Counted from the first letter of the stretch, positions 49,584-51,060 are shown. The stretch is DNA of 53,577 nucleotides from a virus (IMGVR_UViG_2541047877_000006), one strand, 5' to 3'. Program-made: numbers and translations. Notes: a model not told the origin generated them from the sequence alone.

Positions 49584-49590
49584 AAAAACG

Positions 49591-49602
49591 GGGCATAAGC
49601 CC
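49591..49602 (+). repeat. IS4 target-site duplication, left copy
   Basis: GGGCATAAGCCC, identical at 51029-51040; both lie in loop of J terminator hairpin. Confidence 0.8.
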
Positions 49603-51028
49603 TAATGCCGATCAGTTAAGGATCAGTTGACCGATCCAGTGGCTGTGTAAGAATCCGGAAACGCTCACTTGTTTCCGGATTTTTTTATGCACATTGGACA
49701 GGCTCTTGATCTGGTATCCCGTTACGATTCTCTGCGTAACCCACTGACTTCTCTGGGGGATTACCTCGACCCCGAACTCATCTCTCGTTGCCTTGCCGAA
49801 TCAGGTACTGTAACGCTACGCAAGCGCCGTCTTCCCCTCGAAATGATGGTCTGGTGTATTGTTGGCATGGCGCTTGAGCGTAAAGAACCTCTTCACCAGA
49901 TTGTGAATCGCCTGGACATCATGCTGCCGGGCAATCGCCCCTTCGTTGCCCCCAGTGCCGTTATTCAGGCCCGCCAGCGCCTGGGAAGTGAGGCTGTCCG
50001 CCGCGTGTTCACGAAAACAGCGCAGCTCTGGCATAACGCCACGCCGCATCCGCACTGGTGCGGCCTGACCCTGCTGGCCATCGATGGTGTGTTCTGGCGC
50101 ACACCGGATACACCAGAGAACGATGCAGCCTTCCCCCGCCAGACACATGCCGGGAACCCGGCGCTCTACCCGCAGGTCAAAATGGTCTGCCAGATGGAAC
50201 TGACCAGCCATCTGCTGACGGCTGCAGCCTTCGGCACGATGAAGAACAGCGAAAATGAGCTTGCTGAGCAACTTATAGAACAAACCGGCGATAACACTCT
50301 GACGTTAATGGATAAAGGTTATTACTCACTGGGACTGTTAAATGCCTGGAGCCTGGCGGGAGAACACCGCCACTGGATGATACCTCTCAGAAAGGGAGCG
50401 CAATATGAAGAGATCAGAAAACTGGGTAAAGGCGATCATCTGGTGAAGCTGAAAACCAGCCCGCAGGCACGAAAAAAGTGGCCGGGACTGGGAAATGAAG
50501 TGACAGCCCGCCTGCTGACCGTGACGCGCAAAGGAAAAGTCTGCCATCTGCTGACGTCGATGACGGACGCCATGCGCTTCCCCGGAGGAGAAATGGCGGA
50601 TCTGTACAGTCATCGCTGGGAAATCGAACTGGGATACAGGGAGATAAAACAGACGATGCAACTGAGCAGGCTGACGCTGAGAAGTAAAAAACCGGAGCTT
50701 GTGGAGCAAGAGCTGTGGGGTGTCTTACTGGCTTATAATCTGGTGAGATATCAGATGATTAAAATGGCGGAACATCTGAAAGGTTACTGGCCGAATCAAC
50801 TGAGTTTCTCAGAATCATGCGGAATGGTGATGAGAATGCTGATGACATTGCAGGGCGCTTCACCGGGACGTATACCGGAGCTGATGCGCGATCTTGCAAG
50901 TATGGGACAACTTGTGAAATTACCGACAAGAAGGGAAAGGGCCTTCCCGAGAGTGGTAAAGGAGAGGCCCTGGAAATACCCCACAGCCCCGAAAAAGAGC
51001 CAGTCAGTTGCTTAACTGACTGGCATTA
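49603..51028 (+). mobile_element. IS4 insertion sequence (1426 bp)
   Basis: 18-bp terminal inverted repeats TAATGCCGATCAGTTAAG / TAATGCCAGTCAGTTAAG (16/18); 12-bp target duplication; one transposase ORF. Confidence 0.85.
49687..51015 (+). CDS. insG: IS4 transposase (DDE, IS4 family)
   Basis: 442 aa from ATG 49687; IS4-family [16 protein letters not shown] signature; size matches IS4. Confidence 0.85.
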
Positions 51029-51040
51029 GGGCATAAGCCC
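51029..51040 (+). repeat. IS4 target-site duplication, right copy
   Basis: GGGCATAAGCCC followed by CGTTTTTTT, the distal half of the original terminator. Confidence 0.8.
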
Positions 51041-51060
51041 CGTTTTTTTATGCATTGTTT

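Follow-up and report, generated by a model that had tools for sequence, protein, structure and literature searches.

The window analysed here, a stretch of viral DNA of 53,577 nucleotides (IMGVR_UViG_2541047877_000006), carries about 1.4 kb of sequence between the end of a J-like tail gene and a small convergent gene. The locus raises the question of what this DNA is, how it came to lie there, and what its arrival did to the sequence that it interrupts. The answer that we favor, with a probability of roughly 90%, is that a complete, apparently functional copy of IS4 transposed into a dyad hairpin, flanked by an A-tract and a T-tract, that stood between the J-like gene and the convergent small gene. 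A sequence-only reading of the window had at its core the same view, an IS4 with a true target duplication that splits a terminator after the J-like gene, and this core is upheld by comparison with a reference copy of the element and with natural empty sites. The functional parts of the account are predicted from sequence and folding; they comprise termination by the intact hairpin, the loss of termination, the arrest of transcripts by hairpins of IS4, and neutrality for the phage. The features of the element itself are as follows.

49603–51028, plus strand: IS4, complete copy of 1426 bp, co-directional with the J-like gene
49603–49620, plus strand: left terminal inverted repeat (IRL), 18 bp, 16/18 against the reverse complement of the right end
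49687 (ATG)–51015 (stop), plus strand: IS4 transposase (InsG-type), 442 aa, intact, the sole long ORF in IS4
51011–51028, plus strand: right terminal inverted repeat (IRR), 18 bp

Many E. coli genomes carry copies, annotated 'IS4-like element IS4 family transposase', that are identical to the element at every position (1426/1426 bp). The feature 'insertion sequence:IS4' of K-12 MG1655 differs from the element by 4 mismatches over the 1426 bases and by no indels (99.7% nucleotide identity), and the transposase encoded here differs from K-12 InsG at two amino acids. It shares with the K-12 copy (insG; IS4 family, IS4 subgroup) the length of 1426 bp, the 18-bp imperfect repeats, a single 442-aa DDE/YREK transposase, and a target duplication that falls in the 10–13 bp range; the four base changes, the two amino acid changes, and a site that is unseen in the other genomes searched set it apart. 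The ends read TAATGCC... and agree with the end signature of the subgroup, -AATR... (Table 1 of PMC2266710), and with its 18-bp imperfect inverted repeats. The transposase matches the Pfam families Nterm_IS4 (3e-33) and DDE_Tnp_1 (9e-32) and the NCBIfam model transpos_IS4_1 (304 bits versus a cut-off of 115). D133, D209, and E314 form a candidate catalytic triad (spacers, 75 and 104 residues), assigned by motif and not by structure, and residues 307–321 hold a Y(2)R(3)E(6)K motif (Y307-R310-E314-K321); the transposase thereby fits the definition of the IS4 family, which combines a D(60–110)D(100–150)E triad with Y(2)R(3)E(6)K (PMC2266710). Judged by these matches, the element of the window is an intact IS4, and none of the observations speaks against this. 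The copy also appears to be functional, as is indicated indirectly by its intact ORF and ends, by the perfect duplication around it, and by the many E. coli copies identical to it.

These results bear out, through the sequence, the ORF, and the domain matches, the initial description of a 1426-bp element with an IS4-type transposase of 442 aa, and the 18-bp imperfect inverted repeats that it named agree at 16 of 18 positions. An alignment to a reference IS4 had been proposed as a check, and the annotated copy of K-12 MG1655, with 4/1426 differences, confirms the identification. The further remark that the element marks the host as an IS4-bearing lineage is true but says little, because IS4 is present in 2687 of the 5426 complete E. 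coli genomes, or about half, at roughly 5500 places; one IS-free relative of the prophage, that in strain MS 21-1, lies in a host with 13 IS4 places.

The genes that surround the insertion belong to the tail region of the phage.

44613–49583, plus strand: J-like tail-tip/host-specificity gene, 1656 aa, intact, defined by ORF and Pfam
51061–51306 (region to 51363), minus strand: convergent small gene, 81 aa, defined as an ORF, with a signal-peptide-like N-terminus (MKKLIVACILSALSFGAFA)
51504–53300, plus strand: fibre-like gene, 598 aa, with a GTA 'head spike fiber' domain (NCBIfam NF048003, 7e-19)

The J-like protein has Pfam matches to FNIII-A_GpJ, Phage-tail_3, Ig_J, Ig_J_second, and Phage_Tail_Tip and is much longer than J of lambda, which has about 1130 residues. 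Its gene is considered to be intact because it has the same length as the 'phage tail tip fiber protein' gene in the IS-free relative from strain 2017C-4173W12 (designated L001). The C-terminal end of the J-like protein and the region downstream are rare: phage records lack them, and among the 5426 complete E. coli genomes 11 have them. The convergent small gene, which is annotated as the hypothetical protein WP_000734009.1 in the IS-free relatives, gave no match in Pfam, with a BhsA-like match below the threshold only, and has the appearance of a moron-type insert separating the J-like and fibre genes. The 598-aa gene is annotated as a head spike fiber in the relatives and lies downstream of the J-like gene, the usual place of side tail fibres. 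Overall, the window resembles the mEp021-like temperate phages, the tail regions of which are mosaic, and the prophages most closely related to it are found in E. coli, inserted in abgT. Judged by homology it begins near the end of the integrase gene and extends as far as the last gene of the phage, with no host DNA inside, and we infer that the phage was integrated as a prophage. Genes with the annotation antitermination protein Q are present in the relatives.

The element is enclosed by a direct repeat, GGGCATAAGCCC, that is identical in 12 of 12 positions at 49591–49602 and 51029–51040 and has unambiguous boundaries. Target duplications of the IS4 subgroup are 10–13 bp in length (PMC2266710), a range that includes the 12 bp found here. 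A query representing the empty site was made from the two flanks, joined minus one copy of the repeat, and was used to search complete E. coli genomes. The uninterrupted sequence, AAAAAAACGGGGCATAAGCCCCGTTTTTTT, together with the same prophage region, is present in 11 of 5426 genomes, four of them at 100% identity, and at these sites the annotation has a 'phage tail tip fiber protein' ending ahead of a hypothetical gene that converges on it. When the window is aligned with the IS-free L001, the left flank is 99.97% identical over 6182 bp and the right flank is 99.88% identical over 2549 bp, with an overlap between the two alignments of exactly 12 bp on the L001 sequence. Four IS-free relatives have the hairpin core, CGGGGCATAAGCCCCG, without any change, and the A- and T-runs alone vary among them, by one base. 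The earlier claim that the flanking 12-bp direct repeat is a duplication is thus proven by the natural empty sites and by the 12-bp overlap in L001, and the comparison with IS-free relatives that had been suggested alongside it is provided by the 11 genomes with the uninterrupted site, the flanks being about 99.9% identical. On this evidence the repeat is a true target duplication, made by staggered cuts that fell symmetrically about the dyad of the hairpin.

The occupied junction was absent from the 5426 complete E. coli genomes in the junction search, and the exact occupied junction was also absent from the GTDB representative genomes; a search via the left end of IS4 found this flank in none of the 38 IS4-bearing IMG/VR loci. 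Distant-mode searches for divergent relatives of the hairpin region returned the same 11 near-identical E. coli loci alone and none among phage records. Of the genomes searched, this one alone has the insertion. Its perfect duplication, the identity of the IS, and the match of about 99.9% between the flanks and the IS-free relatives point to a recent event that is strain-private. The long residence of the prophage that had been read from the presence of a host IS would not be needed for it: a single transposition is enough, and phage genome records also contain IS4. Because it is in none of the other genomes searched, the insertion can serve as a strain-specific marker of the prophage lineage. 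For annotation, the 1.4 kb that follows the J-like gene belongs to a host insertion sequence rather than to phage cargo, and deletion of 49603–51040 restores the true phage sequence.

Two other explanations of the same arrangement were weighed. The prophage may have taken up, by homologous recombination with another prophage, a tail segment that already bore IS4, an event for which the mosaic tail regions of these phages and the presence of IS4 beside or inside J genes in other prophages provide some precedent. We regard this as very unlikely, since the occupied site is in no other genome or viral contig searched and the flanks on both sides of the junction are 99.9% identical to those of IS-free relatives; even if it were true, the original event would still be the same transposition. 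A placement of IS4 by faulty assembly is hardly credible: although IS elements are often misplaced in short-read assemblies, misjoining would not yield a perfect 12-bp duplication, the length expected for IS4, centered exactly on the dyad of a sequence that is uninterrupted in relatives.

When IS4 and one copy of the repeat are removed, the sequence reads ...CATAAAAAAACGGGGCATAAGCCCCGTTTTTTTATG... and forms by folding a hairpin of 17 bp with an energy of −28.6 kcal/mol (z = −8.6 versus shuffles). The restored G+C core comprises a 6-bp stem and an AUAA tetraloop, with U7 downstream on both the plus and the minus strand (the U7 of the minus strand is the complement of A7), and has a fold energy of −11.6 kcal/mol on the plus strand and −12.2 kcal/mol on the minus strand. 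The terminator scan calls the intact site terminator-like in the IS-free L001. The A-tract overlaps the TAA stop codon (49581–49583) of the J-like gene, the G+C stem begins at 49589, and the stop of the convergent small gene is 11 nt from the T-tract. Because it stands between convergent stop codons, the intact hairpin looks like a bidirectional intrinsic terminator, as predicted from its sequence. An Rfam scan of 44000–53577 gave no family at the gathering score.

The proposal that removal of the element and one repeat restores a terminator hairpin is supported by this fold energy and by the existence of the empty sites in nature, and some of its details are revised here. The hairpin had been placed 3 nt after the J stop codon, but the A-tract actually overlaps that codon; the insertion had been placed in the loop, but the cuts are actually in the stem, and the duplication consists of the loop plus 4 bp of each arm. 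The designation as the terminator of the J gene is correct in that the hairpin follows the J-like gene; it is shared, however, with the convergent gene, and 'bidirectional terminator' is the better term. The halves of this putative terminator in the IS4-bearing window, and the hairpins that the element brings with it, are as follows.

49582–49602: left half of the split terminator, comprising the A-tract (49582–49588), C G, and copy 1 of GGGCATAAGCCC (49591–49602)
49652–49686, plus strand: terminator-like hairpin internal to IS4, found by folding, with a 12-bp stem (49652–49663/49670–49681) and a T-run to 49686
50989–51024, minus strand: hairpin at the right end of IS4, with an 11-bp stem (51024–50999) and then UCUUUUU, called by the scan (−17.5 kcal/mol)
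51029–51049: right half of the split terminator, comprising copy 2 of GGGCATAAGCCC (51029–51040), C G, and T7 (51043–51049)

By folding, the left remnant has a 5-bp stem of −8.3 kcal/mol with no U-tract after it, and the right remnant has a 4-bp stem, two bases from the U-run, of −6.9 kcal/mol (z = −0.46 in context). The terminator scan finds no plus-strand terminator-like site after the J-like gene in the IS4-bearing window. We infer that neither remnant would terminate well after the insertion. The suggestion that the terminator was split, leaving a weakened partial hairpin on the right, agrees with both the loss of the scan call and the folds of the remnants.

The left internal hairpin of IS4 is located 49 bases into the element, directly before the ATG of the transposase (49687). 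Its energy is −15.5 kcal/mol alone and −24 kcal/mol in context (z = −4.2), and it is predicted to bury the weak GGA ribosome-binding site of the transposase. The simple terminator scan missed this structure, apparently by extending the stem into the T-run, but folding shows the hairpin clearly. Transcripts that enter from either neighbor would meet an inward-facing hairpin and U-run of IS4 within 30–85 nt: read-through from the J-like gene would stop at about 49686, ahead of the transposase ATG, and the right-end hairpin would stop transcripts arriving from the convergent small gene. IS4 would in this way supply its own terminator for each direction in place of the one that it destroyed and shield its transposase. 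The sequence-only reading had J transcription running into the IS, which would hold for about 85 nt but not beyond the predicted hairpin at 49652–49686. IS elements are reported to have an excess of terminator-like sequences within them and immediately upstream (PMC13548323; PMC2965389), and the inward-facing hairpins of IS4, as modeled here, fit these general reports. The insertion would be cheap for the phage: the J-like gene is intact, and late transcription, if it is antiterminated as the antiterminator genes in the relatives suggest, would still reach the downstream fibre gene. At the left junction (window 49592–49609, minus), pairing of the IS4 end TAATGCC with the duplicated target has produced a new hybrid hairpin, GGCAT/ATGCC. 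CCG-T7 comes after it on the minus strand, and the terminator scan scores the hairpin as terminator-like for transcription that exits IS4 to the left.

The role assigned to the hairpin, and the indifference of the phage to its loss, can each be disputed. The hairpin may be a palindrome with another role or none, and not a working terminator, so that the insertion would be without effect on transcription. Phage late operons are usually antiterminated and the relatives carry Q genes, which means that a terminator here may matter little in lytic growth. The canonical shape of the hairpin (6-bp G+C stem, tetraloop, U7 downstream, and A7 upstream), its place between convergent stops, the scan call in L001, and the invariant core in relatives nevertheless make this reading improbable. 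It has also to be considered whether the insertion is adaptive or regulatory, either by tying the IS4 transposase to prophage induction or by altering expression of the fibre gene or the small gene. The transposase is indeed co-directional with the J-like gene and with late transcription, and in lambdoid phages late transcription is carried out by RNA polymerase modified by a Q-type antiterminator, which would ignore the 5' hairpin of IS4. The orientation of IS4 is, however, inconsistent, being opposite to J in phage Lambda_4B5 and of both kinds at the nupC/pdeA hairpin, and a single genome gives no sign of selection; we give an adaptive role a very low probability.

In the junction query, other copies of IS4 were matched for about 28–33 bp beyond the IS on both sides, and the flanks of IS4 sites were therefore compared. 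The comparison included 19 distinct sites with duplications of 11–14 bp, a convenience sample obtained in part from a search favoring flanks like this one. Within it, A is present at 10–12 nt to the left of the duplication centre in 14–17 of the 19 sites and T at 10–12 nt to the right in 17–18. At least 8 of 11 dyad-complementary positions are found in 9/19 sites as compared with 0.13% of background positions; in about half of the sample, A/T arms are present but a strong hairpin is not. Among these sites, therefore, IS4 is shown to prefer AAA at 10–12 nt to the left and TTT at 10–12 nt to the right, often around a G+C-rich palindrome. Because about half have the arms without a strong hairpin, IS4 probably reads a symmetric pattern of duplex sequence or shape that terminators satisfy, and not an extruded hairpin. 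Some members of the IS4 subgroup have been described as having 'spectacular' target-arm specificity (PMC2266710).

Specific examples in the sample include the intergenic hairpin of nupC/pdeA, where IS4 is found in both orientations, the yceK/mdoH hairpin, and positions about 40–60 nt downstream of adhE, aroA, and typA. In the IS-free form of the window, only three positions join A/T arms to a strong dyad, and the hairpin of the J gene ranks first. The site, which had previously been treated as incidental, is actually very close to the target preference of IS4. An unoccupied hairpin at window 36848–36880, AAAAGCCCGGTAGATCCGGGCGTTTT, matches the target pattern (A/T arms plus 6/7 dyad positions), and an AT-rich palindrome near window 2103 also scores on it. 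Within the literature searched, no paper directly on IS4 target specificity and terminators was found. Among the classical papers on the element (Klaer 1981, Habermann 1979, Mayaux 1984), those from the 1980s reportedly give the target as a pseudo-palindrome, AAA...TTT, and record an insertion in the attenuator of pheST.

A broader interpretation is that IS4 in effect seeks terminators, because the rule of AAA, about 18 bp often with a G+C dyad, and TTT is also the signature of a bidirectional terminator and because the ends of the element carry inward hairpins. One bidirectional terminator would be exchanged for two unidirectional ones, with the transposase shielded at little cost to the host, and the lambdoid J region would be a recurrent target, at terminator hairpins as well as at a site within the coding sequence of J. 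We put this forward as a tentative possibility, toward which we lean less than away; no paper in the literature searched makes the statement for IS4.

At the other hairpin sites of IS4 (nupC/pdeA, yceK/mdoH, adhE, aroA, typA, Lambda_4B5, and PhiR70_1), the duplications are 11–14 bp in length and are centred on the dyad or within 1 nt of it. They are like the site in the window in having a G+C-rich dyad with A-tract and T-tract flanks just past a stop codon, but the hairpin sequences and the genes are different. Another member of the IS4 family, IS231A, has as its target GGG(N)5CCC flanked by bent A/T-rich DNA. The site studied here is similar in that the duplication contains a symmetric G+C-rich core (GGG-N6-CCC) and that conserved A/T-rich arms lie outside it; the element and the host are different, however. 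Safe-haven insertion is known for Tn7, which inserts downstream of glmS, and for IS1397 and ISKpn1, which insert in REP/BIME elements. As with these elements, the insertion described here is in non-coding palindromic DNA at a gene end and spares coding sequence, but the transposases and their recognition are different, and IS4 is not strictly intergenic, as is apparent from a site inside J genes. The repeated landing of IS4 in dyads with A- and T-tracts at gene ends, including the terminators of phage tail genes, explains how such insertions are tolerated, and the site pattern may help to forecast places of insertion. The locus presents a known element with a known behavior in an ordinary IS4 target, and the current view of IS4 and phage biology is unchanged.

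IS4 is present also in two phage genome records. In Lambda_4B5 (L005 2501–3926) it occupies the hairpin GGCACCAGAAATGGTGCC-T6, which is 35 nt past a J-like gene; it differs from the copy in the window in being opposite to J and in having the hairpin T-run on one side only. In PhiR70_1 the occupied hairpin separates E, the major capsid gene, from FI. The Lambda_4B5 site is an independent parallel of IS4 in a hairpin after a J-like gene. The hairpin GGCACCAGAAATGGTGCC with T6 is also occupied by IS4 in the IMG/VR loci L012, L018, and L032, both orientations being represented among the lambdoid sequences, and L018 and L032 have homologous J-like sequence on the same side of IS4 as in Lambda_4B5.

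The site inside J genes, ...GATAACGC[CAGCAGACTGGAG]GAGTTTTCG..., is a recurrent one in the coding sequence of lambda-like J at about residue 847 (...TEDNA|SRLEEF...). It was seen in IMG/VR at L013 4126, L015, L017, L014, L028, and L043, in both orientations and with small differences in the flanks, from which it follows that IS4 inactivates J repeatedly in lambdoid prophages. Two further copies have no matching target duplication, one at L041, on the same IMG/VR contig as L013, and one at L052, in E. coli SCU-172 beside a truncated gene of the GntR family. The first 19 bases of the right flank of L041 are those of the L040 site. The arrangement of these two copies suggests recombination between copies of IS4 or deletion of DNA adjacent to the element.
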